From: an uncultured delta proteobacterium
Lineage (GTDB): Bacteria; Desulfobacterota; Binatia; Binatales; Binataceae
Length of the DNA: 64,000 bases
Direction: 5' to 3'
Assembly: GCA_963810495.1 (NCBI GenBank)
Contig: CAWENP010000004.1
Location: 12,860-76,859 of the forward strand
Part shown: one piece after another, positions 13,656 through 32,726 of the stretch
Layout of the letters: every line of letters begins with the position of its first letter
Position numbering within the stretch: the stretch's first letter is position 1
The notes under the pieces: generated by a model
Database searches by the model: none
What the model saw: only the letters and a program-made list of their open reading frames with translations
What the model was told of the DNA's origin: nothing
Program-made: the position numbers and the translations under genes

Positions 13656-13659
13656 CGCT

Positions 13660-14303: not shown

Positions 14304-14538
14304 AACAGCCACGGCACGATTGCCCGGTGTTCTGGCCCGGACCCTACCAGACGCAAAAGCCTTCGCAATGCGTGTCCTTGGCCGCCACCCGAATAATTTT
14401 GCGGAGCACAACAGGTCCTGGTTCAGTGTGAACATATAGCCGTCACTGATGCTCTGCCCGCGGCGTCCGCGAAATGGAACACCAGTTCCTGCACTTTATA
14501 GCTGGCATTCGCACGCTACCGTTATCGCGCAAGCACAT

Positions 14539-15239: not shown

Positions 15240-15469
15240 AGCAACCGAAATCTCCGTCTCCTGATGCGGAAAATCCCTATTGGCTTTAGGAAAACTCCTT
15301 ACAACGAGTACGACGACAACCCGATCAAAGCGAGGCGATGGCCGCGAGGCAGGGTCTGCTGGCGACCAATATCGCCCTTGCGTTCTGAGCGGAGAATCGC
15401 GACCCTGCTGTCGTCGCCTTCACCCCAGGAGCCTGTTCAATTGTCGAAGACTACCAACAGGACTAACAA

Positions 15470-16307
15470 CAGGTTGCACCGACTTCCAAATCCGCGCCGC
15501 GCCGGCAACTCCGATTCGCAAGGGCACGCCGCCGAAGACTCGACGAACTCCCGCATTCCGCTGCTCGAACGCGACCGCTCGCGCATCGCGATCATCGAAC
15601 CAAGTCGTGTCATCAAACGCATCGACGTCGCCGAGCATTGTGTGCTGTGCTTCTTCAAGGAAGTCATCGCGGAGCTCGTGCGTGAGGGCGCCCAGGCGCG
15701 CCACGTGCATAATGGCGAGAGCGAAGCAGGCGACTACCCGGTTTACGAGCTGGATTATGGGGGTCAGCGGCTCGCCATTGTTCATCCGGGAGTCGGCGCC
15801 TCCAGCGCGGCGGCGCGTCTGGAGCACATGATCGCGCTTGGATGCCGTAAGTTCGTCGCCTGCGGCGGCGCCGGAGTCCTTGTCGGATCCATAAGCGTCG
15901 GGCATATTGTCGTACCGACCGCGGCGATACGCGACGAAGGGACGTCATATCATTACCTGGCACCGGCGCGCGAGGTCGCACCAACACCGCGCGCGCTCGA
16001 AGCGATCGAAGCAGTACTGCGGGAGAACAATCACGATTACGTCCGCGGCAAGACCTGGACCACCGACGCGGTGTATCGCGAGACCCGCCCGCGGATGGCG
16101 CGGCGGCAGCGTGAAGGATGCGTGGTGGTCGAGATGGAGGCGGCAGCCTTCTTCGCGGTTGCGCGCTTCCGCCGCGTCGAGTTCGCGCAAATCCTGTATG
16201 GCGGCGACAGTCTCGCCGGCCTGCGATGGGATCCCCGTGGATGGAACCGTCACGCGATGCGCGAGCGTCTTTTTCATCTCGCGGCCGAGGCTTGCCTTCG
16301 GCTGTGA
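15470..16307 (+). CDS. Nucleoside phosphorylase, PNP/UDP family (uridine phosphorylase-like)
   Basis: The C-terminal 260 aa of the 523-aa track ORF match the family (VVEMEAAAFFAVA resembles the YEMESATL region). The upstream two-thirds overlap the minus-strand lipoprotein and are not coding. The start codon is uncertain; a TTG or alternative start is likely. Confidence 0.65.
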
Positions 16308-16580
16308 GACCCGCTCTGGACCCAGCGTGCATCGTTAACCATCGCGCTTTCGCAGTCTGGGGCTACGACTCAGTAAGGCGAAGTCCTAACTACCGCGACT
16401 CTCTCAAATCAAGACACGCTGAGACCGCATAGTTGCGCCGAATGAGCTGCGCAACTTCGCAGCCGTGCGTACAGGTCAGCGAAAAACGTGGTATGAAAAG
16501 CGAACCATTTGGCCGCCCGCCTGGGTTTGCAATGCGAACGCCCTGGCGGTTCCGTCCGGGGACATTCGGGAGCGCTAGCG

Positions 16581-18983
16581 ATGGCGGTTGCCAGCCGCGA
16601 GCAAAACCGGGGAGTGGGCGCGTTTATTCTGCGACAGCGCGCGCCTATCGGGATCGTTCTGATCGCGACCACGCTGTTCATGGCGTTTTGGGCGGCGCAC
16701 GTGCCGATCGCGACGCGCTTTGAAGATCTCTTCCCGGCGCGCCATCCTGACACCCTGCTCTATCGCCAGTTCCGCCGCCAATACGGCGGCGCGCAGCAGC
16801 TCGTCCTGATGCTCCGCGTGCGCCAGGGCGACATCTTCAACTTCCACACCCTGCAAGCGATCCAGGACATGACGCGCGAGGTCGACAAGCTATCCGGCGT
16901 CAACCACAATGAGGTTTTCTCACTCGCCTCGTATCGCGTGCTGTATGCGCGCGCCGAACCCGGCGCGCTGGTCTCGGCGCCTTTCATGTATCCCGACGTG
17001 CCGCACACGCAGCAGCAACTCGACGACCTCAAGAGCATCGTGCGCGCCCATCGCCAGCAGTTGGCGGGCCTGGTTGCGCGCGATGAGCGCGGCGCGGTGG
17101 TGATCGCGAGCTTCAACGAGACGGGCTTCGGCTACGGAGCATTGTTCGACGGCGTGCAGCGGATCATTCGCGAGCATGAGGACCGTAACACCCGGATCTA
17201 TGCGAGCGGCGCCGCAATGTTCGCAGCCTGGGGCTATCACTACCTGGCGCGCATCGGGATCACTTTCGCGGTCTCGGCGGCCCTGATGGTGCTCATCACG
17301 TTCCTCGCCCTCGGTCGGCGGACCGGTTGGTGGGCGCCCGTGCTGACCGGCCTCTGTTCGGCGATCTGGGGGCTCGGCTTCGTCGGCCTGATGCGCTTCA
17401 ACTTCGACCCGGTGATGCTGGTGGTACCGTTTATCCTGACCGCGCGTGATCTCAGCCACGGCATTCAGTGGCACGGCCGCTACTACGACGAACTTGACCG
17501 CGGCGACGATAAGCCGCGCGCGTGCGCGGCGACCGCCGACACAATGATGGCGCCGGGCTTGCTCGCCGTGCTCGCCAACGTCGCCGGCATCGTCTTCATC
17601 GCCGCGAGCGACGTTCCGGTGCTCAGGCAGATCGGCGTGGGCGGCGCGGTCTGGCTGGGAGCAAGTCTCGCGATGGTGTTCGTGTTCCAGCCGATCCTGA
17701 TGAGCTACCTGCCGCGCCCGGCGCTGCGCGAGTCGAGCTGGTTTGGCGGCTGGACTGATAGGGGACGATCGCTGGTCGATCGGATGGCCGCGTTTCCCAC
17801 GACTTCCGGCCTCGCGCGCGGCGCGCTGCTCGCCACCGGCACGCTTGTGATGATCGTCGGAGTGGCCGCGGCGCGGCGTGTGCGCGTCGGCTACCTGACG
17901 GTGGGCACGCCGATTTACCGGCCCGACGCCAAGGTCAACCGCGACACGGCCGAGATCGGAAAACTGCTGCCGGTCGACTCCGCTTGGGTGGTCGTCGACA
18001 CGCCCGGTTATCCCAGCCCGCAGTCCGCGGTGGGGATCGAGACGCTGCGGATGTCGGACGACCTGGCGAACTATCTCGTGAAGCGGGGCGACGCGGTCGC
18101 GGTGCTCGGCTTCGGCACGCTGGCGAGCAAGCCGATGAACATGCTGCTGCACTACGGCTACCCGAAGTATTTGGCGCTGCCCAACACCAACCAGCTCAGC
18201 GCCAACCTGTGGGGCTTCTTCTTCGCGGCGGCGGCGCCCGACGAGCCGCAAGCCTACTTCGCCTACGCGCCGGCGATGAACAACACCTGCATCCGCCTGC
18301 TCCTGTCCAACCATACCAGCGCCCGCCTGAGCCGCTTGCGCAACGACCTCGACGTCTTCGTGCGTGAGCGGGTGGCGGCCGACCCCGCGCTCAACCAAAT
18401 AAAGGTGCGCTACCTGGGCGGCGAGGCGGGACTCTACCTTGCCACGGACGATGTGATGGCGCGGCTGAACTGGGTCAACCTCGCCCTGGTGCTCGCCGCG
18501 ATCCTGGTGTGCTGCGCGATCGTGTTTCGCTCGTTGGCCGCCGGGCTGCTGTTCGCGGTGGCGTGCGTGATGGCGAACTTCGGTGCGTTCTTGTATATGA
18601 ACGCGCTCACCATGGGCCTCACCGTCGATACGATCGCGGTTATCTCACTGGGAATCGGACTGGGTATCGACTATGCGATCTACACCGTCGCGCGCATCCG
18701 CGACGAGGTGATCGAGGGGCGCGCGCTGAACGACGCGATAGCTACCGCGTTGCGCACCACCGGCGTATGGGTGTTTGCCACATACGCGGTGATGGTGGGT
18801 GGGATGCTGCCGTGGCTATTCTCGCCCCTGCTCTTCCACAACGAGATGAGCTCGCTGCTGATTTTGCTGATGAGCGCCAATCTGATTGTGGGCCTGTTCA
18901 TCCTGCCCGCGTTCATCGCGTGGCGCCGTTCGAGATTCATCACGCGCTACGAGTCCGCCGCACGCGGCGCCGCCCTGGTGTAG
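16581..18983 (+). CDS. RND-superfamily exporter, MMPL/HpnN-like (paralogue A)
   Basis: About 800 aa with 12 TM helices in a 1+5/1+5 arrangement and two large periplasmic loops. Conserved ILTARDLSHGIQW and GIGLGIDYAIYTVARIRDEV segments. The ATG at 16581 follows an in-frame stop. Confidence 0.85.
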   Translation: MAVASREQNRGVGAFILRQRAPIGIVLIATTLFMAFWAAHVPIATRFEDLFPARHPDTLLYRQFRRQYGGAQQLVLMLRVRQGDIFNFHTLQAIQDMTREVDKLSGVNHNEVFSLASYRVLYARAEPGALVSAPFMYPDVPHTQQQLDDLKSIVRAHRQQLAGLVARDERGAVVIASFNETGFGYGALFDGVQRIIREHEDRNTRIYASGAAMFAAWGYHYLARIGITFAVSAALMVLITFLALGRRTGWWAPVLTGLCSAIWGLGFVGLMRFNFDPVMLVVPFILTARDLSHGIQWHGRYYDELDRGDDKPRACAATADTMMAPGLLAVLANVAGIVFIAASDVPVLRQIGVGGAVWLGASLAMVFVFQPILMSYLPRPALRESSWFGGWTDRGRSLVDRMAAFPTTSGLARGALLATGTLVMIVGVAAARRVRVGYLTVGTPIYRPDAKVNRDTAEIGKLLPVDSAWVVVDTPGYPSPQSAVGIETLRMSDDLANYLVKRGDAVAVLGFGTLASKPMNMLLHYGYPKYLALPNTNQLSANLWGFFFAAAAPDEPQAYFAYAPAMNNTCIRLLLSNHTSARLSRLRNDLDVFVRERVAADPALNQIKVRYLGGEAGLYLATDDVMARLNWVNLALVLAAILVCCAIVFRSLAAGLLFAVACVMANFGAFLYMNALTMGLTVDTIAVISLGIGLGIDYAIYTVARIRDEVIEGRALNDAIATALRTTGVWVFATYAVMVGGMLPWLFSPLLFHNEMSSLLILLMSANLIVGLFILPAFIAWRRSRFITRYESAARGAALV

Positions 18984-19310
18984 GGAACGAGCGCGTTAGA
19001 CTTCGTCGGCCGCGATGATCGTCGCTTGAACAGGACCGTTGTCGGCGATGTACTTCGAGATTTCCTGTGCGGTCTTTGCCAGGTCACGGCTGGGCTCCCA
19101 CCGTCGTGAGCCTACGGGTGTGCGGTTGAATAGCGGGTCACTTTTAAACAGCCTAACCTCAACGGCACGTACAGAACACCGCGCATCTCTGAGAAAACCC
19201 AGAATATGGCGCCGCTGGATGGCCGTTCCGGGAACAGCCCACACGGTAGACATGAGCCCATCTCCTTCACTTCGATTTAGGGCTGGCTATCACAGTATTC
19301 TTGCGCTGGT

Positions 19311-20381
19311 TCAAGCGCGCAGGAGGAAGATTTGATGAAATGGATTTTTTACCGGCAATTTATCGAATCTCGAGAAACCGGCTTCCTGCGCCAGCGCTCG
19401 CGCTTTGGCTTCACCGATTACCGAGCCTAACCCCTCTCCGCCCTGCGCCAGCGAAACCGTCATGCAATGCATCGTGCTCGACGCATACATGGTGCGCCCC
19501 TGCGGATTAAGATTTTCCTCCAGCCGGTCCGAGGCGCGCGCCTCTGACCACAGGACCGCGCCATCCGGCTTGACGATCCGGCGAATCGCGGCCAAAACCT
19601 GCCGCGGCCGCGCCATGTCATGGATGCAGTTGAAGGCCATTACCAGATCAAAGCGCCCGGCAAACGGCAGTTCCTCCGCGTCGAGCCGCTCGAAAGCGAC
19701 GCGTCCGGCAACTCCCGCCTGGGCGGCTTTGCGAAGGGCTCGATTGATCGACGTCTCGTCCATATCGTAGCCCAAAAATCGGCTGTTCGGATATGCCCTT
19801 GCAACCGGAATCAGGCACTGCCCGGCACCACATCCGATCTCCGCCGCTTCAGACCCGGCGATTAGCCGCTGATGAATATCCGGTACCGCTGGAATCCACT
19901 CCTGAGCGACCCAGGTCTCGTAACCCGCGTGGAAAAGCCGCTCGATAGCTTCGACGATATCGCCTCCAAAATCGGTGAAAGGAACGCCGCCGCCTTGCTC
20001 GAACGAGTTCATCAGCTTTCCGAGCTGGCGGTAACAGGCCACCGCATACTGAAAAGCTCCGCCCATGAAGAACGTGTTGTCCTCGCGCGCTAGCACGATC
20101 GCCTGCTCGGGATCCAATCGAAAAGTGGCATTAGCCGGGTCGTAATCGAGGTATCCGGACGCCGCCATCGTTGCCGCCCATTCGCGGAGGTAACGCTCGT
20201 TCAGCCGAGTCCGTTCGGCGAGCTGCTGCGAGGTCATCGGCGTGCCGTTCGCCATCGCCTTGAAAATTCCAAGGCGGTCACCGATGTAGGCGAGCGCAAC
20301 AGTGAGCGCCGCGCCGAAGTCCACCCCTACCTGGCGCGTCAGCGCGGCCGCTTTTTTTCGATCCGGCGTAATTTCATCCAT
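19311..20381 (-). CDS. Class I SAM-dependent methyltransferase with an N-terminal winged-helix/dimerisation region (O-methyltransferase-like)
   Basis: Motif I EIGCGAGQCL, an acidic loop YDMDE and motif IV-like DLVMAFNCIHD. Confidence 0.8.
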   Translation of the reverse strand: MDEITPDRKKAAALTRQVGVDFGAALTVALAYIGDRLGIFKAMANGTPMTSQQLAERTRLNERYLREWAATMAASGYLDYDPANATFRLDPEQAIVLAREDNTFFMGGAFQYAVACYRQLGKLMNSFEQGGGVPFTDFGGDIVEAIERLFHAGYETWVAQEWIPAVPDIHQRLIAGSEAAEIGCGAGQCLIPVARAYPNSRFLGYDMDETSINRALRKAAQAGVAGRVAFERLDAEELPFAGRFDLVMAFNCIHDMARPRQVLAAIRRIVKPDGAVLWSEARASDRLEENLNPQGRTMYASSTMHCMTVSLAQGGEGLGSVIGEAKARALAQEAGFSRFDKLPVKNPFHQIFLLRA

Positions 20382-20727
20382 GTGTCGCCGACACTAGCGA
20401 TGCGGCCCCTCGCCGTCAAAGCCCTGCCTGATGAGCGCCTCGGCCGCCTTCGAACGAACCCCCTCACTATCCGCTTGGGATGCACCGGCGCGCGGCACTG
20501 CTCCTCCAAGAGGCCCGGATAATACACGTCAGATTCCGCCTTGACGCAACTCTGGACGCGCGCCTAGGCTCACCCACTCCAATACTCAGTTCTCTTGCAA
20601 CCGAGCAGTCAACTGTGAGACAAAATCCGGAATAGCCGTAACAAAGATGCCCACAGCCTGTTCTGCTCACTGCCTGACGAGCGACTAGTTGCACGCTGCT
20701 CGTCATGGACTTCAGGGAGGAGGTCCG

Positions 20728-21393
20728 ATGCTGGGAAGAAAAACTCGCTTATCTGTGGTTTGGCTGGCCGCCCTGTCCATGATCTCCGGATGCGCGGGCA
20801 TGAGCGCAAGGGAGCAGTGCATGCTGCTCGGCGCAGGCGCAGGCGTAGTGGTCGGCGGAGGGGTGGCGGCTGGCACGGTCGCAGTCCACGGCAATCGTGA
20901 CCAATTCACCTGGGCCGTTCCCGCAGGCGTGGTAGGCGGCGCCCTCATCGGTGGCTTGGCCGGCTATCTCCTGTGCCCGCCACCACCACCTCCACCACCG
21001 CCTCCTCCACCGCCACCACCTCCGCCTCCTCCGCCACCACCTCCGCCACCACCGGAAAAGATAATCCTGCGTGGCGTTCACTTTGACTTTGACCGGTCAA
21101 ATATCCGTCCGCAGGATGCGGCCGTGCTCGACGAGGCTGCGGAAACTCTGAAGTCGCATCCGAACGTGACGGTCAACGTCAATGGTTACTGCGACGCGAT
21201 CGGCTCGGTCAGGTACAACCTGCGGCTCTCCGAACGCCGGGCCAACGCGGTCGTGAGGTACCTGGCAGACCACGGCGTGGCCGAAGGCCGCATGAGCCCG
21301 CACGGCTATGGGAAGACACACTTCGTCGCGACCAACCGGACGGCGGAAGGACGCGCCCAAAACCGCCGGGTCGAACTGGTGCCGAACCAGTAG
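20728..21393 (+). CDS. OmpA/MotB-domain lipoprotein (Pal-like) with a run of 26 consecutive prolines
   Basis: Lipobox LSMISGC, a Gly-rich segment, then CPPPP...(26 P), then a C-terminal OmpA_C-like domain (NGYCDAIGSVRYNLRLSERRANAV...NRRVEL). GGAGGAGG Shine-Dalgarno 7 nt before the ATG. Confidence 0.85.
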   Translation: MLGRKTRLSVVWLAALSMISGCAGMSAREQCMLLGAGAGVVVGGGVAAGTVAVHGNRDQFTWAVPAGVVGGALIGGLAGYLLCPPPPPPPPPPPPPPPPPPPPPPPPPPEKIILRGVHFDFDRSNIRPQDAAVLDEAAETLKSHPNVTVNVNGYCDAIGSVRYNLRLSERRANAVVRYLADHGVAEGRMSPHGYGKTHFVATNRTAEGRAQNRRVELVPNQ

Positions 21394-21404
21394 CATCGGC
21401 CATA

Positions 21405-21448
21405 CCCTGCCGCAGCCTCAAAACGGGCTGCGGCAGGGACTCGTTTCC
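21405..21448 (+). terminator. GC-rich hairpin downstream of the OmpA-like gene
   Basis: CCCTGCCGCAGCC ... GGCTGCGGCAGGG stem; the trailing T-tract is weak. Confidence 0.4.
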
Positions 21449-21455
21449 GACGACT

Positions 21456-21851
21456 TTGATGCGTAATGCCAAAATATGCGGCGTGCTCGTCGGCGCTGCC
21501 TTGCTCGCGACCGTCGCGATTTCGGCCTGTGTGCGCGAATCGGAGCAAAAGCTCGCCGCAAAACCCACCCCGGCGGCAGCGAGCGACGAAATCGAATCGG
21601 GAGTCTATGGCTTCTCGGGCGCGATCAAAGGCGGGAGCCCTTCGGGCGTGATGGGCGAATGCATCTGGATCTACGACGCCGACAACAAGAAGCAGATCGC
21701 CAAGGGCGATTGCGATCAAGGCAACTTCCGAGTCGTGCTCAGGCCGGGAACTTACGTCGTGCGCGGACCCGGCGGCAACCAGAAGATCGAGATCAAGCCG
21801 CACCAGTGGATCAAGATCAAGTCGCTTGTCGAGCTCCCGGGTTCGCTGTAG
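21456..21851 (+). CDS. Hypothetical lipoprotein with a carboxypeptidase-regulatory-like beta-sandwich feel
   Basis: Lipobox ISAC; GNFRVVLRPGTYVVRGPGG. Confidence 0.45.
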   Translation: MMRNAKICGVLVGAALLATVAISACVRESEQKLAAKPTPAAASDEIESGVYGFSGAIKGGSPSGVMGECIWIYDADNKKQIAKGDCDQGNFRVVLRPGTYVVRGPGGNQKIEIKPHQWIKIKSLVELPGSL

Positions 21852-21896
21852 TGCCGCCGCCGCAGCACCTCTTTTTCCCACGCGGCTTGTTTGCCG

Positions 21897-22070
21897 CTAG
21901 GCGACCTTTCTGAAAGCGGTCGCTTCGTCGTCCTCAGCGAACCGCGTTCCTCCCGGCGAGAGCGGATACCGGCGTACCGGCGTCATACCCCATACGTACC
22001 AGTCCAGCACGGCCAGTACGGCTACGATCACTGCGCCAAGAATCAAAGTAGTGATCGACGGAAGAATCAT
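21897..22070 (-). CDS. 58-aa hydrophobic small protein with a strong Shine-Dalgarno sequence
   Basis: My own translation is MILPSITTLILGAVIVAVLAVLDWYVWGMTPVRRYPLSPGGTRFAEDDEATAFRKVA. AGGGGAGGAG lies 6 nt upstream. It is absent from the ORF track because it is under 60 aa. Confidence 0.3.
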   Translation of the reverse strand: MILPSITTLILGAVIVAVLAVLDWYVWGMTPVRRYPLSPGGTRFAEDDEATAFRKVA

Positions 22071-22503
22071 CTTCGGCTCCTCCCCTCTGCGAAGTCCCCT
22101 GCTCTGAGGCTGCGGGCTTCGGGTAAAAAAACGGTAACAACATCTCTTAAGACCTTTTGTTCAATGGATGCGTGAAATCACGCTCGGGAGGAGTTACAGC
22201 ATCCATCGTGCCATCGACAGCAGACCTTGCGTGATCGCGAAAGGTCGGATTTTTCGACTGAATATAAGGGCTACGCAGCCTTGCTCATGCAGCCCGGCCC
22301 ATGGGAACCTTTGCGAAACGCGAATCAGACGCGAAATGGGAAGCGTCATACAGCGAACGCCTGGCGTTCGAAACTGATACGTTGCTGCAGTCCCTCTACT
22401 ATGCCGATCAGCTATTGCGATTTGGGTCACAAGCTCGTATTGGTTGCTTAAGTTCAAGTTGAGCAAGCTGAACGCGCCGATTCAGCCGGAGAGGAGGGAG
22501 CCA

Positions 22504-22893
22504 ATGACGTCGAAATCCTTGAAACTGACGATGCTGGGTCTGGTAGCGGTCTGCGTCGCGGGCATCTATTCCGCCATTTCGTTTGCGCAGGCCTCAACAT
22601 CACCTATGGCCGAGCCAACCACCGCTCAGGCTCCATTCGGAAAAAAGAGCGGCACTTGGCATAAGTACCGCAAGGAAGACGTGCAGGCCGTCATGACCAA
22701 GGTCGCCCAGGATGTCTGGCACGCGCAATACTCAGGGGCCAGCGGGCAACACATGGAGCAGTTGTTTCTCGAAGGTCAGCGCGCCTATTTTCACGGCGAC
22801 TATGACGCCGCGATGCATGACTTCCTCGCCACGGAACGCATTGTTTCGAAATATCCCAATGACGTAACCGCAGGGGCGCGGCCGGCGCCATAA
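22504..22893 (+). CDS. Secreted hypothetical protein upstream of RND paralogue B
   Basis: GGAGAGGAGGGAG Shine-Dalgarno, then ATG. Signal peptide LTMLGLVAVCVAGIYSAISFAQA. About 105 mature residues. Confidence 0.5.
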   Translation: MTSKSLKLTMLGLVAVCVAGIYSAISFAQASTSPMAEPTTAQAPFGKKSGTWHKYRKEDVQAVMTKVAQDVWHAQYSGASGQHMEQLFLEGQRAYFHGDYDAAMHDFLATERIVSKYPNDVTAGARPAP

Positions 22894-22992
22894 CCTGCTG
22901 GCCCTGCGCCGAGGGCTTCGCTCGGTATTTCCGGCCGGTGCGAGAGCGCGGATCATAGGCACCGCCATCGACCGGCAGAAATCGGGCTAACA

Positions 22993-25434
22993 ATGGGTTC
23001 GTATCGATCCGGCAATTGGGGGTTCGGCGACTTTATCCTGAAGCATCGCCGTTCCATCGGCGTCCTGCTGCTACTGATTACCGCCTTCATGGCGTGGAAC
23101 GCGGCGCACGTCAGGGCGGCGACCAGGTTCGAAAGCCTCTTTCCGTCCGGCCATCCCAACGTCAAGCTCTACCAGCAATACGAGCGGCGCTACGGCGGTG
23201 CGCAGACGCTGGTGCTGCTGATGCGCGTGCGACGCGGCGATGTCTTCAACCACGACATGCTGGGCAAGATCGTCGAGGTCCAGAACGCCGTCAACGGCCT
23301 GCCTGCGGTTGACCACAACCAGGTTTTTTCGCTGGCCTCTTACCGTGTCGCCTTCACCGAGGCGGTGCCCGGCGGACTCGCTTCGAAATGCTTCATGTAT
23401 CCGGAGCCGCCGAAGACGCAGCACGAGCTGGACGAGCTGAGGCAGAACGTCCACGCGCATCGTGATCGCGTACAGGGGTTGCTGACGTTCGACGACAAGG
23501 GCGCGTTGGTGCTCGCGGCCTTCAACGCCGACCGGATCGACTACGGGAGGCTATTTGACGACATCCAGGCCATCGTCCATCGCTACTCCGACAGCAACAC
23601 CGACATCTACATTGCGGGCCTGCCGGTGATCGTGGGATGGGGCTACCACTACTTCGACGACATCGCGATCATTTTCCTGGGCTCGGTAGTGCTGATGCTG
23701 CTCATCCTGTATCTCAGCCTGGGCCAGCGCTCGAGCTGGTGGGCGCCGATTCTGACGGGCTCGTTCTCGGCGTTGTGGGGACTCGGGTTCGTGGGTCTGA
23801 TGGGCTACAACTTCGACCCCATCATGATGGTCATCCCATTCATCCTGACCGCCCGCGACTTGAGTCACGGAATCCAATGGCAGGGACGCTATTACGACGA
23901 GCTCGACGTGCTCGACGACAAGTTCGCGGCCTGCGCCGCGACCACCGACGTGATGCTGCCGCCGGGGTTTCTATCGATCATCGCCGACATCGCGGGCATC
24001 ATCTTCATCTCGCTGGGCGGGATCCCTGTGCTCAAGGAGATCGGGCTGGCGGGTGCGGTATGGCTGGCGGGCAGCCTGACGATGGTGTTCGTGTTTCAGC
24101 CAATTTTCATGAGCTATCTGCCACGGCCGCGGATCAAGCCGCGTAGCTGGGCGGAGCGCGGGCTGTGGGCGGGCGGCTCGAGGTTGGGCGGGATGGTCGA
24201 GGCGCTGGTGCGCGTGCCCGTGACACCGGGTGCGCTGCGCACGGCTATCCTGATTAGCGGCGCGGCCTTTATCGTATGGGGCGTGGCCTCGGGCCAGCGC
24301 GCCAAGATCGGTTACACGACGGCCGGCACGCCGCTGTACCCTCCCAGCTCCAAGGTCAATCGCGACATGGCGGAGATCGGCAAATATCTTCCCCTCGATG
24401 AGGGATGGATCGTGCTCGAGACGCCCGACTGGCCGAGTCGCCAGTCGTCGCTGGGGCCGCCGGTATTGCGGATGGAGGACGATCTTGCGGCTTACCTGCA
24501 GGCGCGCGGACAGACCGCGGCGGTGGTTTCGTTCTCGAACAGCGTAGTCAAAGGGCTCAACCGGCTGTTGCATAACGGCCACCCGAAGTTCTTCGCGATG
24601 CCGCAGATCTCGGCGCTCAACGGCAACATCTGGTGGATGTTCTTCGGCGGCACGGCGCCGGGCGAGATGGAGCGCTTCTTCGCCAATAATCCGCAAGTCA
24701 CCAGCACTTGCATCCGCGTATTGCTGCCCGACCACACCTACGAACGGCTCAGACTGCTGCACAATCAAATCCAGGACTTCGTCAATTTGCGCGTCAACAA
24801 CGACCCCGAACTCAAGGGCGTCACTGTGCGATACCTGGGCGGCGAGGCGGGACTTTACGCGGCGGCCAACGACGTGCTCTACCGCCTCGATTTAATCAAT
24901 ATCACGTTCGTGTTGGCCGCGATCTTCATCTTCTGCGCGGTTTCGTTTCGATCCGCCGTGGCGGGCGCACTGTTCATCGTGTCGTGCGTGATGGCCAATT
25001 TCGGCGCTTTCGTTTACATGGGCGCGCGCGGCATCGGACTCACCGTCGACACAATCCCGATCATCTCGCTCGGCATCGGGCTGGGCGTCGACTATGGCAT
25101 CTACACCGTCGCGCGTATTCGCGACGAAGTTATGAACGGGCGGCGGCTCGACGATGCGATCACCACGGCGCTGCACACCACGGGCGCGGCGGTGTTCAGC
25201 ACCTTCGCAGTGATGATCGGCGGAATTTTGCCGTGGGCGTTCTCGCCGTTGCAATTCCACAACGAGATGAGCGTGCTGCTGATTTTTCTGATGGCGACCA
25301 ACATGATCGCGGGCGTGCTGATCCTGCCCTGCTTCATCTCGTGGCGCCGCCCCGCCTTCATTTGCAAGTACGAAACCGCGCCGCCAGCGGGCGCGACCGG
25401 CGCAGCGCGATCTGCCGCGGGGCGCTTCAACTAA
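22993..25434 (+). CDS. RND-superfamily exporter, MMPL/HpnN-like (paralogue B)
   Basis: Roughly 60% identical to paralogues A and C along the full length, with the same conserved segments and topology. Confidence 0.85.
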   Translation: MGSYRSGNWGFGDFILKHRRSIGVLLLLITAFMAWNAAHVRAATRFESLFPSGHPNVKLYQQYERRYGGAQTLVLLMRVRRGDVFNHDMLGKIVEVQNAVNGLPAVDHNQVFSLASYRVAFTEAVPGGLASKCFMYPEPPKTQHELDELRQNVHAHRDRVQGLLTFDDKGALVLAAFNADRIDYGRLFDDIQAIVHRYSDSNTDIYIAGLPVIVGWGYHYFDDIAIIFLGSVVLMLLILYLSLGQRSSWWAPILTGSFSALWGLGFVGLMGYNFDPIMMVIPFILTARDLSHGIQWQGRYYDELDVLDDKFAACAATTDVMLPPGFLSIIADIAGIIFISLGGIPVLKEIGLAGAVWLAGSLTMVFVFQPIFMSYLPRPRIKPRSWAERGLWAGGSRLGGMVEALVRVPVTPGALRTAILISGAAFIVWGVASGQRAKIGYTTAGTPLYPPSSKVNRDMAEIGKYLPLDEGWIVLETPDWPSRQSSLGPPVLRMEDDLAAYLQARGQTAAVVSFSNSVVKGLNRLLHNGHPKFFAMPQISALNGNIWWMFFGGTAPGEMERFFANNPQVTSTCIRVLLPDHTYERLRLLHNQIQDFVNLRVNNDPELKGVTVRYLGGEAGLYAAANDVLYRLDLINITFVLAAIFIFCAVSFRSAVAGALFIVSCVMANFGAFVYMGARGIGLTVDTIPIISLGIGLGVDYGIYTVARIRDEVMNGRRLDDAITTALHTTGAAVFSTFAVMIGGILPWAFSPLQFHNEMSVLLIFLMATNMIAGVLILPCFISWRRPAFICKYETAPPAGATGAARSAAGRFN

Positions 25435-25733
25435 CGTGACCCACGACCGCGGTGCCGCTGGGTTGCGCCGCGCTGCTGGCGGCTTGTCGCGTGGTGACTT
25501 CCAGTGAAGTCCGCCAATTTATCGCATCAATGGCCGGTTGACATCGCAGTCGATTCCGGAGTAGACCGGCTTACTGAGTTGATTTCATGCGCTTTTGTGC
25601 GCATTGCGAGCAGGAGTTCCGGGGGGAAGGATTGAACGGCTAACTAACTAGAAGTGAACGGCTGATTAAACTTCATCGCAGTGCTCGCATCCCGTAGGCT
25701 GCGGAGCACGATGAGGCGGGACTCTCCAAGGCT

Positions 25734-26741
25734 ATGCGTGTGCGAAGAGGAGCGTTCTGGGCGCTAGCGGGCGCCGTGGCGGGGGTGGCTGTGATAGCCG
25801 GCACCCTTGTGTCCAGCGCCGCGATAAGCGGCAGCACCGTCAGCGGCGCGCATCCGTGGCAAGCGCTTTACGGCGTTGCGATTCGCCCCGACGGCAGCAT
25901 CTACATCGTTGGCTCGAAGGGTCTGCTGATGGTCTCGGATGACCATGGCAAGAGCTGGAACGAGCAGGTCCTCCACGAGCGCGACGGCAACGTCCTCTTC
26001 CAAGACCGCGACCTGTACGCGATTCAGTTCACGCCCGACGGCAAGAGCGGCTGGATTGCAGGCGAGATGGGGATCGTCCTGCACTCCGACGACAGCGGCA
26101 AGACCTGGACGCGCCAGCAGACCGGGATCGCGAGCAACCTGTTCAATGTCTCCGCGGTCGATGCGCAACACGCGTACGCGTGCGGTGCGGAGGGAGTGCT
26201 GCTCAGCACCGTCGACGGCGGACAGCACTGGAATGTCTACAAGTATAAAGAGCCGATAATTTTTTTCGATGTCCACTATACCGACCCCAACAGCGGCTGG
26301 ATGGTGGGCGAGTTCGAGACGATCCTCCACACCACTGACGGCGGCAAGACCTGGAACGTCAGTCACGGTGGCAACACCAGCGACTTTACGATCGGCCCCA
26401 GTTTCTCGATCGTCTTCACCGATCTCCAGCATGCTCTGGTTACTGGGCTAAACGGCGAGGTCCTGATCACTGAGGACAGCGGCAAGACCTGGAAGGCCCT
26501 GAAGCTGCCGGAGCCCCTGGCGACTTACACGGCGGCCGTGGCGGGAGGGCGGGTTTGGCTGGGCGGTGAAGGCGGGCGGCTGGTCGGAATGGATGCGGCC
26601 GGCAAATGGGCGGTTCATCGGCCTACCTTCAACGACATCGCTGCCGTGGCGTTCCTGGGCAACGTGGGCTACGCGGTCGGCCTTAACGGACTGATCCTGC
26701 GGACGGACAACGCGGGTGAGCAATGGCAGGTGGTAAAGTAA
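25734..26741 (+). CDS. Periplasmic BNR/Asp-box repeat beta-propeller (Ycf48-like)
   Basis: Signal/anchor segment, then six S-x-D-x-G-K-T/S-W repeats (DDHGKSWNE, SDDSGKTWTRQ, TVDGGQHWN, TTDGGKTWNV, TEDSGKTWKAL, TDNAGEQWQV). Overlaps the start of RND paralogue C by 19 nt. Confidence 0.8.
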   Translation: MRVRRGAFWALAGAVAGVAVIAGTLVSSAAISGSTVSGAHPWQALYGVAIRPDGSIYIVGSKGLLMVSDDHGKSWNEQVLHERDGNVLFQDRDLYAIQFTPDGKSGWIAGEMGIVLHSDDSGKTWTRQQTGIASNLFNVSAVDAQHAYACGAEGVLLSTVDGGQHWNVYKYKEPIIFFDVHYTDPNSGWMVGEFETILHTTDGGKTWNVSHGGNTSDFTIGPSFSIVFTDLQHALVTGLNGEVLITEDSGKTWKALKLPEPLATYTAAVAGGRVWLGGEGGRLVGMDAAGKWAVHRPTFNDIAAVAFLGNVGYAVGLNGLILRTDNAGEQWQVVK

Positions 26742-29167
26742 GAAAAGAGCAGGCCGTCGGCCCGATCGGCGTATTCGTCCTTCGCTTCCGCGCACCGATC
26801 GGCATCGTGTTGCTGCTCTTCAGTGCCTTCATGGGGTACGAATGTACCCGGGTCCGCATCGCCACGGACTTCGCCGAATTCTTTCCCCGCACGCATCCGA
26901 ACGTTCAGCTCTACGAAAACTGGAAAAGGTACGGCGGCGCTCAGACCCTGGCCATGATGGTCCAGGTCAAGCAAGGCGACATTTTCAACTTTGATACCCT
27001 GCGGCGGATCCAGGGCATCCAGCGCGACATCGACAAGCTGCCCGGCGTGGACCACAACGAGGTCCTCTCGCTGGCCTCTTACCGGGTGAGCTACGCAGAG
27101 GCGGCGCCAGGCTCGCTCACCATCAAGCCCTTCATGTTCCCCGACGTGCCCACCACGCAGGAGGACCTCGAGGAGCTTAAGCGCCACGTTTTCTCCAACC
27201 GCGCCCGCATCGCGCACCTGGTTAGCGCTGACAACAAGAGCGCGCTGGTGATGGCCTCATTCAACGAGCGGGGGCTCGACTACCGCGAGCTGTTCAACGA
27301 CATCCAGGAGATCGTCAGGAAGTACCAGAATGAAAACAACCAGATCTTCGTAGCCGGCGAGCCGATCATCCGCGGCTTCGGCTACTACTACGAACACCTG
27401 ATAGACCTCCTGTTTCTGGCTGCGGTCGCGACGATGATCGCCATCTTGTACCTCACGCTCGGCCAGCGAACGCGATGGTGGGCGCCGATCGTCACCGGCG
27501 CGCTGTCGGCCGTCTGGGGCCTCGGGTTCGTTGGATTGATGGGCTACAACTTCGACCCCGTGATGCTGGTCATCCCGTTCATCCTTACCGCGCGCGACAT
27601 GAGCCACGGCATCCAGTGGCAGGGCCGCTTCCACGACGAGCTCGACCGGCTCGGCGACAAGTACGCGGCCTGCGAGGCGACCACCGACTTCATGCTGCCA
27701 CCCGGCTTGCTGTCTATTCTGGCCGACGTAGCCGGCATCATCTTCATCTCCTTCGGCGGCATCCCGGTCCTGCAGCATATCGCGCTGGCCGGCTCGGTGT
27801 GGCTCGCCGGCAGTTTGACGATGGTCTTCATCTTCCAGCCGATCTTCGTCAGCTACCTGCCTGTTCCCAAGATTAAAGAGAAGAAGCGAGTCGGCGCCGA
27901 GCCGGGAGGGCTCAAGACGGCCAAGACTTTCGTCGACTGGCTGGTCCACATACCGGTCACGCCGGGACCGGCACGGACTGGTCTGCTGGTCTTCGCTCTG
28001 TGCTTCCTGGCTGCCGGCATTGTCGCCAGCATTCGCCAGGACATCGGCTACAAGACGCCAGGCACGCCGCTCTACCGGTCCAACGCCAAGGTCAATCGGG
28101 ACATCGTCGCAATCGGCAAGAAGTTCCCGCTCGAGGAGGGGTGGGTCATCCTGACCACGCCGGTGGGCAAGGAGGCGGCGGCTGGCCAAACAGTGCTGGC
28201 GCCGCGAGTGCTCAGGATGGTTGACGACATGCGCTCGTACCTGCTCCAGGATCCCCGTGTCGCCGTGGTCGTCTCCTTTTCGTCGACCATTTCATATCCG
28301 CTCAACCAGATGTTCCACTATGGCCATCCCAAGTACCTCGCGGACCCCGACTCGATCCGGCTATCGGGAAATCTCTGGTTCCTTTATCTCAATGGATCGG
28401 CGCCGGGAGAGCTGGAGCGCTTCATCTCCGACCGCTCCAATCACGACACCTGTATTCGTATCCTGTTGCGCGACCATACCTACGACACGCTCAACGGCCT
28501 GCGGGACCGGATTAGTCAGTTCGTTAACGAGCGGGTTAAGAACGACCACGAATTGGCGAATGTGCACGTGTGGTATTTGGCAGGCCTGGCGGGACTGTAC
28601 CAGGCCGCGAATGACGTTCTGTATCAACTGGATTTTCTCAATATCACTTTTGTGCTCACCGTGGTGTTTCTGTTCTGCGTGATCTCCTTCCGTTCCTTTG
28701 TGGCCGGATGCATGTTCCTGTTCTCCTGCGTTCTCGCCAACTTCGGCGCTTTTATATATATGGGGTTACGTGGTATTGGTCTGACGATCGACACGATACC
28801 GGTGATTTCGCTGGGTATCGGCCTGGGCGTGGACTACGGAATTTATACCGTGTCGCGTATCCGGGACGAGGTGATGGGCGGGATGGCGGTGGAAGATGCA
28901 ATCGTGCTGGCTTTGAAGACCACTGGTCTAGCCGTCTTCAGCACGTTCATGGTTATGATCGGCGGAATCTTTCCCTGGATTTTTTCACCATTGCTGTTCC
29001 ATAACGAGATGAGCACGCTGCTCATCTTTCTGATGGCGTGCAACATGGTTGCGGGCGTGCTGATTCTGCCGTGCTATCTGCAGATCGCGCGGCCCAGGTT
29101 CATGTTTGGGCGTGGCCAGGCGCCAAAGTCGGAGAACGGACAAAAGGATGTCGTCGCGGCATTTTAG
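26723..29167 (+). CDS. RND-superfamily exporter, MMPL/HpnN-like (paralogue C), in an operon with the BNR, DUF1302 and DUF1329 genes
   Basis: 814 aa with the same architecture as paralogues A and B; second repeat GIGLGVDYGIYTVSRIRDEV. Confidence 0.85.
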   Translation: MAGGKVRKEQAVGPIGVFVLRFRAPIGIVLLLFSAFMGYECTRVRIATDFAEFFPRTHPNVQLYENWKRYGGAQTLAMMVQVKQGDIFNFDTLRRIQGIQRDIDKLPGVDHNEVLSLASYRVSYAEAAPGSLTIKPFMFPDVPTTQEDLEELKRHVFSNRARIAHLVSADNKSALVMASFNERGLDYRELFNDIQEIVRKYQNENNQIFVAGEPIIRGFGYYYEHLIDLLFLAAVATMIAILYLTLGQRTRWWAPIVTGALSAVWGLGFVGLMGYNFDPVMLVIPFILTARDMSHGIQWQGRFHDELDRLGDKYAACEATTDFMLPPGLLSILADVAGIIFISFGGIPVLQHIALAGSVWLAGSLTMVFIFQPIFVSYLPVPKIKEKKRVGAEPGGLKTAKTFVDWLVHIPVTPGPARTGLLVFALCFLAAGIVASIRQDIGYKTPGTPLYRSNAKVNRDIVAIGKKFPLEEGWVILTTPVGKEAAAGQTVLAPRVLRMVDDMRSYLLQDPRVAVVVSFSSTISYPLNQMFHYGHPKYLADPDSIRLSGNLWFLYLNGSAPGELERFISDRSNHDTCIRILLRDHTYDTLNGLRDRISQFVNERVKNDHELANVHVWYLAGLAGLYQAANDVLYQLDFLNITFVLTVVFLFCVISFRSFVAGCMFLFSCVLANFGAFIYMGLRGIGLTIDTIPVISLGIGLGVDYGIYTVSRIRDEVMGGMAVEDAIVLALKTTGLAVFSTFMVMIGGIFPWIFSPLLFHNEMSTLLIFLMACNMVAGVLILPCYLQIARPRFMFGRGQAPKSENGQKDVVAAF

Positions 29168-29254: not shown

Positions 29255-31141
29255 ATGGGGACTATGGGGACCGAATTTGGTTCGCGGACATGGTGGCAGA
29301 CTGCGCTCAGATTGGCGGCCGCGTTTGCCTTGGTGATGGCGGTGCTCAGTATCTGCGCTGCATCTTCGCGGGCGCAGGACTCGTCGGCTAAGGCGCCGAC
29401 GCAGATTAATGGCGGGCCGCCGATGGCAGATGTCCTGGCCCAGACGAACCCTCCGAGCCAGCCCGAAAGGAGCATCTGGAAGGATTTCCATCTCTCGGGA
29501 TTTCTCAATGAGACCGACGGGATGTGGATTAACCCATCCAATCTCAAGCAGTACACGCCGAGTCGCAATAGTCTGGCCACGGCGCGCACCTGGCTGCAGG
29601 CGGACGAGAACTTCCACCTTGGCGCAAATAACGACTTCTTCATGCGCGAATGGTTCGTGTACGAGCCGCCGTATGCATTTGACAGCTCCAACGACAGGTT
29701 CAGTGCGGCCGGCAGTCCGGGCATGGGGACAATGAACGACTTCTACAATCAGTACACCGTGCGCGACGCATGGTGGAAGCTGACGGCCGGGCCGCTGACG
29801 CTGTATACGGGCAATCAAATCGTGGTGTGGGGTCAGTCGCTGGCCTTCCGCGTGGGCGACGTTATCAACCCGGTAGACACCAACTGGAACTTCGGCTTTG
29901 CCAACCTGGAGCAGTCACGCATCCCGCAATGGATGCTCCATCCGATTCTTAACCTTCCTGACTTGGGTCCGCTGACTTCGAATTTCGTGGAAGGGGTGCT
30001 GATCCCCGGGGCGCAACCAATTTGGAACAGCTGCAATCATCCTGACGGCCGCTACTACCCATCCGGCGACGACGGCTCAGAGTGTAATACGGCGGGCCGG
30101 GTGAACAATGGCTTCCCGGGCGCCAACCACGCGCCGAGCGCCCGCTTCGACGCGCACTACACCAACTTCGCCAGTCCGGGGCGAGAACTCTCTACCAACG
30201 GGTTCCCGTATCCGGAGAATCCCAATGGCGGGAACATACTCGGTTGGCCGCTGCCGCGCGTCTTCTACTTCTGTTCACAGCTCCAAGGCCTATTCGCAGC
30301 GACCCATCAAAAGAACCCCGTAGCGGCCAACCGACAGAGGTTGTGTAACCTGACGGGTGGCCCGGTCATCATCGGCCAGTGGCACGTACCGGCGGTGCAG
30401 TGGAAGAACATGGAAGAGGGCCTGCGCTTTCACACGCTGATCGGCGGCAACGAGATCACGGCGCTCTACTTCAACAGCTTCCAATACTACCCGATCATTA
30501 CGTGGTCGCCTTTCAGCAATCAGTTCCCCGCGGTCTTCGAACCGGTGCAGTACGGGGGTGTGACGATAGACCGGCCGATTCCGGTGCCGCCGAGCCTGGG
30601 CGAGTACCTTCCGCTTGTGGCCCGCGCCGAAGCGGTTTATCAGAACCACGCGCCATTTGGCACCTGGAGCACCAGCGGGACCAACCCGGTCAAGTACTCA
30701 GATATCATGACGTGGATGGTGGCCTTCGACCTCGACAACGCTTACTCGCCGTGGCTTACCACGACCGGTAACCTGTTCGCCAATCTCGAGTTCCTCGACC
30801 AGATAAACATGGACACCAGCAACGACATGATTGATGGGCCGAACGGCGCGCTGGTCAACGAGGCCGTGCAAAAGAACGACATCAGTATGTTGTTGAATAT
30901 CTCGACGTCGTACTGGTGGAACGCGGTCGTGCCGACCTGGACGATGATCTACTCGCTCAAGGGGACGTCTTTCGCGTTCTTCCCTTCCATCCAGTTTAAC
31001 CCGCCGTGGACCAACAAGTACTTTGCCAGAATCGGCCTCATCTACGTGATGGGCTCGGATATGAACTACGTCGGCGTGCCGTTGTTCAAGGGTCAGAACA
31101 TGCTCAATATCACCGCCCAGTACAACTTCAGCGCCTTGTAG
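29255..31141 (+). CDS. DUF1302-family outer-membrane protein
   Basis: Signal peptide, about 600 aa of aromatic-rich beta-strand character, and the family-typical LYTGNQIVVWGQSLAFRVGDVINPVD segment recalled from memory. GGGGAGG Shine-Dalgarno. Confidence 0.7.
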   Translation: MGTMGTEFGSRTWWQTALRLAAAFALVMAVLSICAASSRAQDSSAKAPTQINGGPPMADVLAQTNPPSQPERSIWKDFHLSGFLNETDGMWINPSNLKQYTPSRNSLATARTWLQADENFHLGANNDFFMREWFVYEPPYAFDSSNDRFSAAGSPGMGTMNDFYNQYTVRDAWWKLTAGPLTLYTGNQIVVWGQSLAFRVGDVINPVDTNWNFGFANLEQSRIPQWMLHPILNLPDLGPLTSNFVEGVLIPGAQPIWNSCNHPDGRYYPSGDDGSECNTAGRVNNGFPGANHAPSARFDAHYTNFASPGRELSTNGFPYPENPNGGNILGWPLPRVFYFCSQLQGLFAATHQKNPVAANRQRLCNLTGGPVIIGQWHVPAVQWKNMEEGLRFHTLIGGNEITALYFNSFQYYPIITWSPFSNQFPAVFEPVQYGGVTIDRPIPVPPSLGEYLPLVARAEAVYQNHAPFGTWSTSGTNPVKYSDIMTWMVAFDLDNAYSPWLTTTGNLFANLEFLDQINMDTSNDMIDGPNGALVNEAVQKNDISMLLNISTSYWWNAVVPTWTMIYSLKGTSFAFFPSIQFNPPWTNKYFARIGLIYVMGSDMNYVGVPLFKGQNMLNITAQYNFSAL

Positions 31142-31313
31142 GAGGGAACAAAACCTGAGGTTCGGACGGTTAACAGGGTTGGAGCATCGTTTGAGTGCTC
31201 AATTCGTAAAGGTTATGCTCCTGATAGTGTCCGAGTCCTGACGCTTCAGGTCTTGGGGGACCAGATGCGGTTAATGGCTGGATATTTTGGCCGAACAATC
31301 GGGGACCGGCGAG

Positions 31314-31355
31314 CGCCGGGCGCGCCGCGTTTGCGGCGCGCCCGGCGTTTGTGTT
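31314..31355 (+). terminator. Rho-independent terminator or attenuator between the DUF1302 and DUF1329 genes
   Basis: Perfect 15-bp stem CGCCGGGCGCGCCGC / GCGGCGCGCCCGGCG with a 4-nt loop, followed by TTTGTGTT...TTTTT. Confidence 0.7.
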
Positions 31356-31406
31356 AGTGGCGTTTTTAGGTTCCCGCAAAGCATTACGGTAAGGAGGGAA
31401 AGAAGC

Positions 31407-32726
31407 ATGAGCGCGGCACGTAAGCTGCTAATCGGACTGCTGGGCCTGCTCTTGTGTCCCCTGGCGTTGGGTGCCGCACAGGCGGCGGAGGACACTATCC
31501 CGCCCGGCACCAAGATCACTATGCAGAACTGGCAGCAGTACAAGGCCTTCATGCCCGACGGCATGGTAGCGCTGTTTTCCGGCCAGTATGCGTGGAAGAT
31601 GCCGGACGATGTCGAGATGGATGTGGGTCCCACCACGATCCATCCGTTGCCGAAGCCATTCTGGGATGCGGTGGAAAAATATTCCGCGCAGACGCGCCTG
31701 GTGAAGCTGCCCAACGGCGCGTACAACATCGAGAACTACGTCGCCGGTGTGCCGTTCCCGCATCCCGAAGGTGCCGACAAGGGCACCGAAATCGCGGACG
31801 ACGTGACGTTCCGCCCCGGTGGTGTCCTCTACACCGGTTTCCCTGACCTGCAGGGCAACGAGGAATCATCCTTCTGCACGGTGGACCGCTTCGGCAGCAA
31901 GGCCTGCACGCGGGTCGACTACGACTACCGTCAGCTCGCCTACATCTGGTTCCCCGGCCTCCCGCACCTGGATCCTCATGCCGCCGGAGCATGGTATGGC
32001 GAATGGCTGATGGTGGAAGTGCCCGAGGAGTCCAAGTACACGGCCGACCTGACCCTCTTCTGGCAGGACGTGACGCGCAATCCTGACGACTTCGTCTTCA
32101 TCCCCGCGCTACGCCGTTCGCTGCGGCTTTCGACCTCGGCGCGCTGCGCGCCGCTGTTTGGCAGCGACATGACGCACGACGACCAGCGGGTGGGATGGAA
32201 CGGCGGGGCCTCGGTGTTCGAGGGCACCTATTTGCGCGACCAGAAAATCCTGGCCCTGGTCGACATGACTCACGAGGACGGCAAGTTCCCCGATAACTAC
32301 GACATGCCTCTGGGATGGGCGCGGCCGTCGTGGGGTCAATGGGAGGTCGTCCCGGTGTGGGTAACCGATGTCGAGCGGATTCCCTCGATGCGGCCCGGCT
32401 ACTGCTACGGCAAGCGCATCATGTACACCACGCAGGCGTACTATGCCAATGTCCATCTCGACCTGTACGACGCTAATTCGAAGCTCTGGAAAGTCGTCAA
32501 TATCGGGCTTAGCCCGGCCGTCGACAGATTACACCCCGAGTGGGGCAAGCAGTATTTCGGTGGAATCATCGAGCAGTACTGGGATCTCCAGAATCAGCAC
32601 GCGAGTCACGTGTTTACCGCCGATCGCGAGGGTAATGATCTCACGCCCGACATCGGCTTTGGCACGACCTACGACAACGTCTCGAGATACCAGAGTCCCA
32701 GTGGTCTGATGCAGTTGATGCGTTAA
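31407..32726 (+). CDS. DUF1329-family periplasmic protein
   Basis: AAGGAGGG Shine-Dalgarno, then ATG at 31407. Signal peptide, then ITMQNWQQYKAFMPDGMVALFSGQY ... NYVAGVPFPHPEG, matching the DUF1329 pattern I recall. The track ORF starts upstream at a TTG. Confidence 0.7.
   Translation: MSAARKLLIGLLGLLLCPLALGAAQAAEDTIPPGTKITMQNWQQYKAFMPDGMVALFSGQYAWKMPDDVEMDVGPTTIHPLPKPFWDAVEKYSAQTRLVKLPNGAYNIENYVAGVPFPHPEGADKGTEIADDVTFRPGGVLYTGFPDLQGNEESSFCTVDRFGSKACTRVDYDYRQLAYIWFPGLPHLDPHAAGAWYGEWLMVEVPEESKYTADLTLFWQDVTRNPDDFVFIPALRRSLRLSTSARCAPLFGSDMTHDDQRVGWNGGASVFEGTYLRDQKILALVDMTHEDGKFPDNYDMPLGWARPSWGQWEVVPVWVTDVERIPSMRPGYCYGKRIMYTTQAYYANVHLDLYDANSKLWKVVNIGLSPAVDRLHPEWGKQYFGGIIEQYWDLQNQHASHVFTADREGNDLTPDIGFGTTYDNVSRYQSPSGLMQLMR

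Follow-up and report, generated by a model that had tools for sequence, protein, structure and literature searches.

Old RND transporter paralogues probably gathered beside a four-gene cassette by gene-sized insertions in an uncultured Binataceae bacterium

AmeABCD of Castellaniella defragrans is a four-gene cassette whose deletion phenotypes connect it with monoterpene tolerance and Nile Red efflux (PMC6394551), and all members of the AmeD transporter lineage have been stated to be cassette-encoded (PMC6394551). Cofitness of the four cassette genes has been observed for Shewanella, Kangiella and Pseudomonas (10.1101/072470), mutants in the cassette genes of P. putida show phenotypes on fatty esters (10.1101/2020.07.04.188060), and a 2026 study reports no solved DUF1302 structure and a predicted DUF1302-DUF1329 complex (PMC13499233). 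Here we analyse a 64,000-nucleotide stretch of an uncultured Binataceae genome (hereinafter the window; assembly GCA_963810495.1, contig CAWENP010000004.1, positions 12,860 to 76,859) carrying three RND/MMPL transporter paralogues, designated A, B and C, within 13 kb. The comparisons described below make it probable that these are old paralogues, gathered beside a known four-gene cassette by two gene-sized insertions and not by recent local duplication.

The three transporters are encoded by intact open reading frames on the same strand:

16581 to 18983, plus strand: paralogue A, stand-alone AmeD-like RND/MMPL transporter of the A-type clade (800 amino acids)
22993 to 25434, plus strand: paralogue B, stand-alone AmeD-like RND/MMPL transporter of the B-type clade (813 amino acids)
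26723 to 29167, plus strand: paralogue C, cassette-linked AmeD-like RND/MMPL transporter (814 amino acids)

MAFFT aligns them collinearly over about 800 residues, with identities of 56% (A-B), 50% (A-C) and 58% (B-C) and a nucleotide identity of only ~67-70%. All three pass the gathering threshold of the Pfam MMPL model PF03176 (68.3, 63.4 and 51.5 bits for A, B and C; threshold 20.5), and their top NCBIfam model is HAE3 TIGR00921, at 104-119 bits against a curated cutoff of 351.9. The hydropathy profile and the AlphaFold2 (AF2) secondary structure both give 12 transmembrane (TM) segments with large periplasmic loops between TM1 and TM2 and between TM7 and TM8. A first-pass annotation of this DNA had described three collinear RND/MMPL exporters within 13 kb, and the reading frames, the alignment and the PF03176 scores bear this out; its "about 60%" identity was slightly generous, the proteins being homologous throughout at a measured 50-58%. 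The segments that it quoted (LASYRV, WGLGFVGLM..NFDP.M.V.PFILTARD.SHGIQW and GIGLG.DY.IYTV.RIRDEV) are all present and invariant in A, B and C, and the alignments place the proteins as true paralogues in one RND subfamily, not in unrelated ones. The neighbours also lie where it had placed them, with a phosphorylase before A, a small secreted protein before B and a BNR propeller before C, and the full accessory set of BNR, DUF1302 and DUF1329 proteins flanks C alone.

BLAST searches and a neighbour-joining tree separate A-type, B-type and C-type clades from one another and from a few further cassette-linked clades, with bootstrap values of 100 for A, 100 for C, 100 for A+B and 72 for B. Other Binataceae genomes contain orthologues of A, of B and of C at 63-94% identity, compared with 50-58% among A, B and C themselves. 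The 79 loci returned by a scan of GTDB species representatives all come from Binataceae-like metagenome-assembled genomes (MAGs), and the named database relatives are all Candidatus Binataceae. At least 8 of the 45 species-representative genomes, a lower bound, carry A, B and C types together, usually on different contigs, and the A and B orthologues of other genomes do not lie in a cassette either. A, B and C are ancient paralogues, of which A and B form sister clades whose members are normally stand-alone genes elsewhere in the genome.

The history of paralogue A can be read from its surroundings:

15441 to 16307, plus strand: PNP_UDP_1 phosphorylase/nucleosidase, 288 amino acids (Pfam, 124 bits; start taken from the L087 and L088 gene calls, the longest open reading frame beginning at 14736)
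16467 to 18961, plus strand: inserted segment, carrying A and ~115 nt of native leader (in blastn, L001, L002 and L008 match this stretch only)
18996 to 19253, minus strand: 85-amino-acid open reading frame in the right junction of the A insertion (L088 gene call)
19311 to 20381, minus strand: Rv2258c-like S-adenosylmethionine-dependent methyltransferase, backbone gene flanking the A insertion (Pfam; syntenic with L046 5874-7172)

The closest species representative compared with the window, MFD09286.bin.2.82 (locus L046), is syntenic with it at 84-86% nucleotide identity from the phosphorylase through the methyltransferase, an OmpA-family protein, the small proteins sm131 and smB, B, BNR, C, DUF1302, DUF1329, a Kelch protein and the 181-amino-acid protein p181. 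This synteny is interrupted exactly at window positions 16311-19308, where L046 has a 427-amino-acid alpha/beta-hydrolase gene of ~1.3 kb on the opposite strand; the A orthologue of the same genome, 93% identical in nucleotides, lies on another contig with no flanking homology. A conserved A context, APH-GST-TPR(Zn-ribbon)-A-183aa-LOG, recurs in three other samples at 79-88% identity, and two further contexts are found at L008 and L091. The ~115-nt upstream leader is common to the window copy and the TPR-linked copies, so A moved together with its own 5' region. Between the window and the sister genome, synonymous divergence (dS) is 0.18 for A, 0.41 for B and 0.53 for C; the value for A, less than half that of B or C, points to an exchange or relocation of A once the two species had separated. 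A with its ~115-nt leader would have entered between the phosphorylase and methyltransferase genes, replacing the hydrolase gene, an arrangement seen in this strain cluster only.

The window showed no trace of the hydrolase gene that A displaced or of the TPR gene beside which A natively lies, an Rfam scan of the whole window gave no match for a leader RNA upstream of A, and a search of L046, L008 and L001 for homology to the 85-amino-acid reading frame returned none. The phosphorylase is an accidental neighbour of A, the adjacency having been created by the insertion. A reading of the phosphorylase-A pair as HpnG-HpnN was rejected: the phosphorylase reaches 34.7 bits with the HpnG model, whose cutoff is 187, and the adjacency is not conserved.

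Paralogue B lies between a small secreted protein and the promoter region of the cassette:

20689 to 21393, plus strand: OmpA-family protein, backbone gene (Pfam; translation; syntenic in L046 and L094)
21456 to 21851, plus strand: sm131, putative lipoprotein of 131 amino acids (every close relative has it in the vicinity of B or of the cassette)
22504 to 22893, plus strand: smB, secreted protein of 129 amino acids with a signal peptide (narrow, Binataceae-only family)
22971 to 25532, plus strand: gene-sized indel of 2.56 kb carrying B and ~100 nt (blastn breakpoints against L094)

In L094, which is 87.5% identical in nucleotides on both sides of the indel, 15 nt stand in place of window positions 22971-25532 and link smB to the BNR promoter region. 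B itself occurs in two arrangements, on the smB-B-BNR side in the window, L042 and L046, and on the far side of the cassette in opposite orientation in L006, L045 and L047. Homology between L004 and the window is confined to the B coding sequence, and distant B-type genes lie beside an MFS transporter and lasso-peptide-like genes or beside an orphan DUF1329 gene, never beside BNR or DUF1302. B would have been inserted between smB and the BNR promoter region, a state common to two sister species and absent in a third.

The smB family comprises 34 clusters at 57-98% identity among 5.8 billion proteins, and smB has no Pfam or NCBIfam match. In L093 and L094, smB stands directly upstream of BNR-C-DUF1302-DUF1329-Kelch with no B between, and B orthologues elsewhere occur without smB. 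As smB adjoins BNR-C where B is absent, it belongs to the cassette neighbourhood and not to B. We also considered smB as an MmpS-like partner of B, which is ruled out by the lack of a family match and by its linkage to the cassette in relatives. The first-pass annotation had taken the cluster as a local family expansion with partner swapping, and as a whole that interpretation is only partly supported. Expansion in place does not agree with three separate clades, orthologues elsewhere, and an A and a B that are gene-sized insertions or indels; swapping does not agree with a phosphorylase adjacency made by the A insertion and an smB tied to the BNR-C neighbourhood.

Some further observations concern these surroundings. 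In the OmpA-family protein, ~27 consecutive prolines separate the N-terminal part, a membrane or lipoprotein region, from the OmpA domain. B-type genes at L004, L018, L021, L022, L023, L025, L027, L028 and L076 are flanked by PqqD-like, transglutaminase-core3 and asparagine synthase genes, sometimes with an ABC exporter, and several of these loci have a 14-TM MFS transporter upstream; the window has no such lasso-peptide-like genes.

Paralogue C is the RND component of the cassette, which comprises the following elements and is followed by two conserved genes:

25734 to 26741, plus strand: BNR/Ycf48-like beta-propeller, AmeC-like (Pfam PSII_BNR, 116 bits)
29255 to 31141, plus strand: DUF1302 protein, putative outer-membrane beta-barrel, AmeA-like (Pfam, 33 bits against a cutoff of 23.2; same position in the EbN1 cassette)
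31287 to 32726, plus strand: DUF1329/LolA-like periplasmic protein, AmeB-like (Pfam, 75 bits; EbN1 cassette)
32750 to 32785, plus strand: strong intrinsic terminator-like hairpin of 14 bp (13 GC) followed by a T-run, at the end of the cassette operon
33001 to 34228, plus strand: Kelch beta-propeller gene conserved downstream of the cassette (Pfam; tblastn matches in two frames)
34287 to 34832, plus strand: p181, 181-amino-acid protein without a Pfam match after the Kelch gene, last gene of the conserved block

The BNR gene overlaps the start of C by 19 nt, and a BNR gene with the same overlap lies upstream of 21 of 21 C-type genes. BNR and C are translationally coupled, and the hairpin at 32750-32785 closes the operon. 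DUF1302 follows C-type genes at only five loci, its place being taken at many by a DUF3108-like gene, indicating that the "full accessory set" is variable within the C clade; at the C-type loci L053-L078, the BNR-RND pair is mostly followed by one or two DUF3108-like lipoprotein genes and not by DUF1302 and DUF1329. A sigma-70 promoter scan was uninformative, giving fewer matches than shuffled sequence. The Kelch gene is split between two frames near 33106 compared with an intact 429-amino-acid orthologue in L006, and it is also in two pieces in L042 and L046; a true frameshift and an error in the sequence are the two possible causes of the split.

A second, orphan DUF1329 paralogue of 756 amino acids is encoded at 45187-47457 on the minus strand, and its DUF1329 domain (residues 359-735) is 48% identical to the cassette copy. 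In this reading frame a bactofilin domain at the N terminus (27-98) is joined, through a single TM segment and a long linker rich in Ala, Pro and Ser, to the DUF1329 domain, which is complete. Just upstream of the fusion are a second bactofilin gene, which stands alone (43549-44055), and a gene for a Crp-type regulator (44052-44942). A membrane-anchored DUF1329 is an unusual architecture, and the protein is a possible orphan partner for A or B.

The arrangement is found in more than one assembly. The 20.3-kb block at 14527-34832 is present at 98.5% nucleotide identity, both junctions included, in an independent contig of the European Nucleotide Archive (ENA; L088), and the junction between the phosphorylase and A is also found in a Joint Genome Institute (JGI) contig (L087). 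Beyond the block, the flanks differ between assemblies. With three assemblies in agreement, the arrangement is real and common to a strain cluster, not an assembly artefact.

All three transporters appear functional at the level of their codons and residues. The ratio of nonsynonymous to synonymous divergence (dN/dS) is 0.08-0.24 over A, B and C (0.08-0.24 for A, with 0.08 between strains, and 0.08-0.17 for B), and by this measure all three are under purifying selection. A, B and C share without exception R291-D292 and H295 in TM4 and D704-Y705 in TM10 (numbered as in C); TM10 aligns with the D-Y motif of MmpL3, and these residues would form the proton relay. Ten of the 18 A-type transporters of other Binataceae (L009, L012-L016, L019, L041, L049 and L051) have Asn at the position of D704, and six of these ten also have Phe for the adjacent Tyr; the A copy of the window keeps D-Y. 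The Asn at TM10 may reflect altered energy coupling in part of the A clade.

Identity among A, B and C is 58-76% in the TM bundles and 42-53% in the two periplasmic domains, indicating that the proteins have diverged most in the regions expected to contact substrates and partners. The AF2 model of C (predicted local distance difference test score 79.7, predicted template-modelling score 0.75) matches MmpL5/4/3, Patched/NPC1/Dispatched and HpnN in Foldseek at TM-scores of 0.63-0.72 and 11-15% identity, which points to the fold of the lipid-transporting RND class; in PDB sequence searches only MmpL proteins matched, over TM10-12 only, with the GxGxDYxxF/Y motif included. From these likenesses we infer that A, B and C are proton-driven transporters that remove hydrophobic or lipid-like molecules from the inner membrane. 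While the evolutionary history of the genes is given by the data themselves, the direction of transport, the substrate and any sharing of partners are proposed by analogy.

Taken together, these results make gathering of old paralogues by two gene-sized insertions the probable history of the locus. The family Binataceae (Binatia), to which this uncultured soil bacterium belongs, would possess an old, lineage-wide set of AmeD-like inner-membrane RND transporters, with C as the pump of an envelope-spanning cassette formed with the BNR propeller, the DUF1302 outer-membrane barrel and the DUF1329 LolA-like carrier. C would hand its substrate to periplasmic and outer-membrane partners, and A and B may act alone, delivering to the periplasm like HpnN and MmpL3, or may borrow the partners of C in trans.

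Several points weigh against this account. The homologue sample consists of best-match loci from incomplete MAGs, of which 80 of 129 were kept, and the tree of 86 Binataceae homologues was built by neighbour-joining, not maximum likelihood. When the tree is rooted with two proteobacterial cassette RNDs, 40 of 60 bootstraps recover A+B as monophyletic and 30 of 60 do so for the remaining clades, counts that fix neither the deep branching order nor a possible cassette loss in the ancestor of A+B. A search for target-site duplications or repeats at the A and B junctions gave only the inverted repeats of an insertion sequence (IS) at 12462 and 14397, away from both junctions, and no insertion mechanism is visible; in the case of B, the L094 lineage may instead have lost the gene by precise deletion. 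The literature, moreover, is divided on the function of the cassette, which has been seen in envelope-component export, in efflux and tolerance, or in ester hydrolysis and uptake.

An alternative that we regard as unlikely is that the cluster was selected as such: A and B would be satellite pumps that draw in trans on the BNR, DUF1302 and DUF1329 proteins encoded with C, as several HAE1 pumps share TolC, and solo RND insertions beside the cassette would have been kept for co-regulation or co-inheritance. Two independent gene-sized paralogue insertions within 10 kb of the same cassette speak for this account, as do the presence of B near the cassette in two arrangements (window/L042/L046 and L006/L045/L047), the absence of any detected terminator-like site between B and BNR, and strong purifying selection on A at its new site (dN/dS 0.08 between strains). 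In Pseudomonas, moreover, DUF1302/DUF1329 and BNR/RND form two unlinked pairs that nevertheless show cofitness. However, A, B and C lie on different contigs in most Binataceae genomes, A came with its own leader and is therefore probably regulated independently, and the periplasmic domains that would dock with partners are the least conserved parts of the proteins (42-53% identity). A related proposal, to which we give similarly little weight, is that solo A- and B-type genes are gene-sized mobile units repeatedly captured beside the cassette because they dock on its partners, so that a single accessory set would suffice for several pumps whose substrate-binding periplasmic domains differ.

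A recent tandem duplication in place, after which the copies diverged and acquired new partners, the model of the first-pass annotation, is suggested by three collinear same-strand paralogues within 13 kb but is very improbable. The paralogues are 50-58% identical to one another compared with 84-94% to orthologues in other species, they fall into separate clades with bootstrap values of up to 100, the A gene of the sister genome is on another contig and one relative has no B at the site, and the phosphorylase and smB do not travel with A or B. That an assembly or binning chimera joined the three genes, as the metagenomic source and the differing block flanks might suggest, can practically be dismissed, because the block and both its junctions recur in the ENA assembly (98.5%) and the phosphorylase-A junction in the JGI contig, and because ~67-70% nucleotide identity between the paralogues is too low to mislead an assembler.

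Outside the conserved block, the left flank carries a mobile element:

12462 to 14417, plus strand: IS element with 21-nt terminal inverted repeats, encoding an rve_3/HTH_32 transposase (12618-13655, Pfam) and a 139-amino-acid open reading frame

Its inverted repeats, GACCACCTGTGCTCCGCAAAA and TTTTGCGGAGCACAACAGGTC, lie at 12462 and 14397, and the element ends ~110 bp to the left of the block edge at 14527. Left of the element, window positions 63-12296 encode a pyruvate:ferredoxin oxidoreductase (63-3674, minus strand), a cytochrome c oxidase cluster (4426-8506; COX2, COX1 and two COX3), a cupredoxin, a 666-amino-acid protein without a Pfam match and a UbiA-type prenyltransferase that may be a haem O synthase. 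The right end of the block is adjoined by a DDE_3 transposase in L088. In the window, a 5.3-kb segment between p181 and an amidohydrolase gene (34833-40154), missing from the sister genome at L046, contains three pilin-type genes resembling TadE/TadG, of which one encodes a VWA domain, together with a regulator of the Crp family, two small open reading frames and direct repeats of ~180 nt at 35445-35887.

The DUF1302/DUF1329/BNR/RND cassette is widespread, and its conservation extends to pathogens and to degraders of hydrophobic compounds. A natural comparison is available in the Binataceae, with one cassette-bound and two cassette-free sister pumps that are 50-58% identical and differ mainly in their periplasmic domains, a contrast that could reveal the accessory-binding surfaces and whether an accessory set can be shared. 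For annotation, the locus calls for caution: adjacency to a phosphorylase or to a small secreted protein does not indicate partnership, and the clustering is secondary.

Compared with known stand-alone transporters, A and B find their functional analogy in HpnN (HAE3; PDB 5KHN), an RND lipid exporter without dedicated outer-membrane partners, whose fold is similar to the C model (TM-score 0.64). Identity with HpnN was rejected, since TIGR03480 scores 26.7 bits for A and 20.9 for B against a cutoff of 751.85 and does not match C; unlike the HpnN setting, no hopanoid genes lie near A, B or C, and HpnN is not retrieved by PDB sequence search. MmpL3/4/5 are the best structural matches to C (TM-score 0.64-0.68, E ~1e-23, 13-15% identity), but unlike mycobacterial MmpL proteins the paralogues lack an MmpS-type partner, an AcpM context and a cytoplasmic domain at the C terminus, and they belong to a diderm host with outer-membrane partners for C.

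The cassette of C, by contrast, has direct counterparts. It shares with AmeABCD-type cassettes the four components and a 12-TM RND of the HAE3/MMPL class. Among PLSDB plasmid records, the nearest cultured-bacterium homologue of C is the cassette RND on plasmid 2 of Aromatoleum aromaticum EbN1 (29% identity over 96% of C, E 6e-97), where YCF48-MMPL-DUF1302-DUF1329 follow in the same order among beta-oxidation-like genes; homologous cassettes are Shewanella Sama_1588-1591 and Pseudomonas PP_0765/0766 with PP_2018/2019, and BNR-RND translational coupling is also seen on the P. aeruginosa PA83 plasmid. The locus differs from the AmeABCD type in its 25-29% identity to the proteobacterial members, its Binataceae host, and the presence of smB upstream and of the Kelch gene and the 181-amino-acid protein downstream. 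The AmeD lineage is delimited by cassettes of DUF1302, DUF1329 and BNR/COG4447; C has all three, and A, B and their orthologues do not, so that A and B, unlike the members of that lineage as described (PMC6394551), are close paralogues without a cassette of their own. The Binatota genome paper is silent on RND and MMPL genes, and neither it nor the cassette literature cited here describes cassette-free clades within the AmeD-like lineage or their repeated placement beside the cassette.

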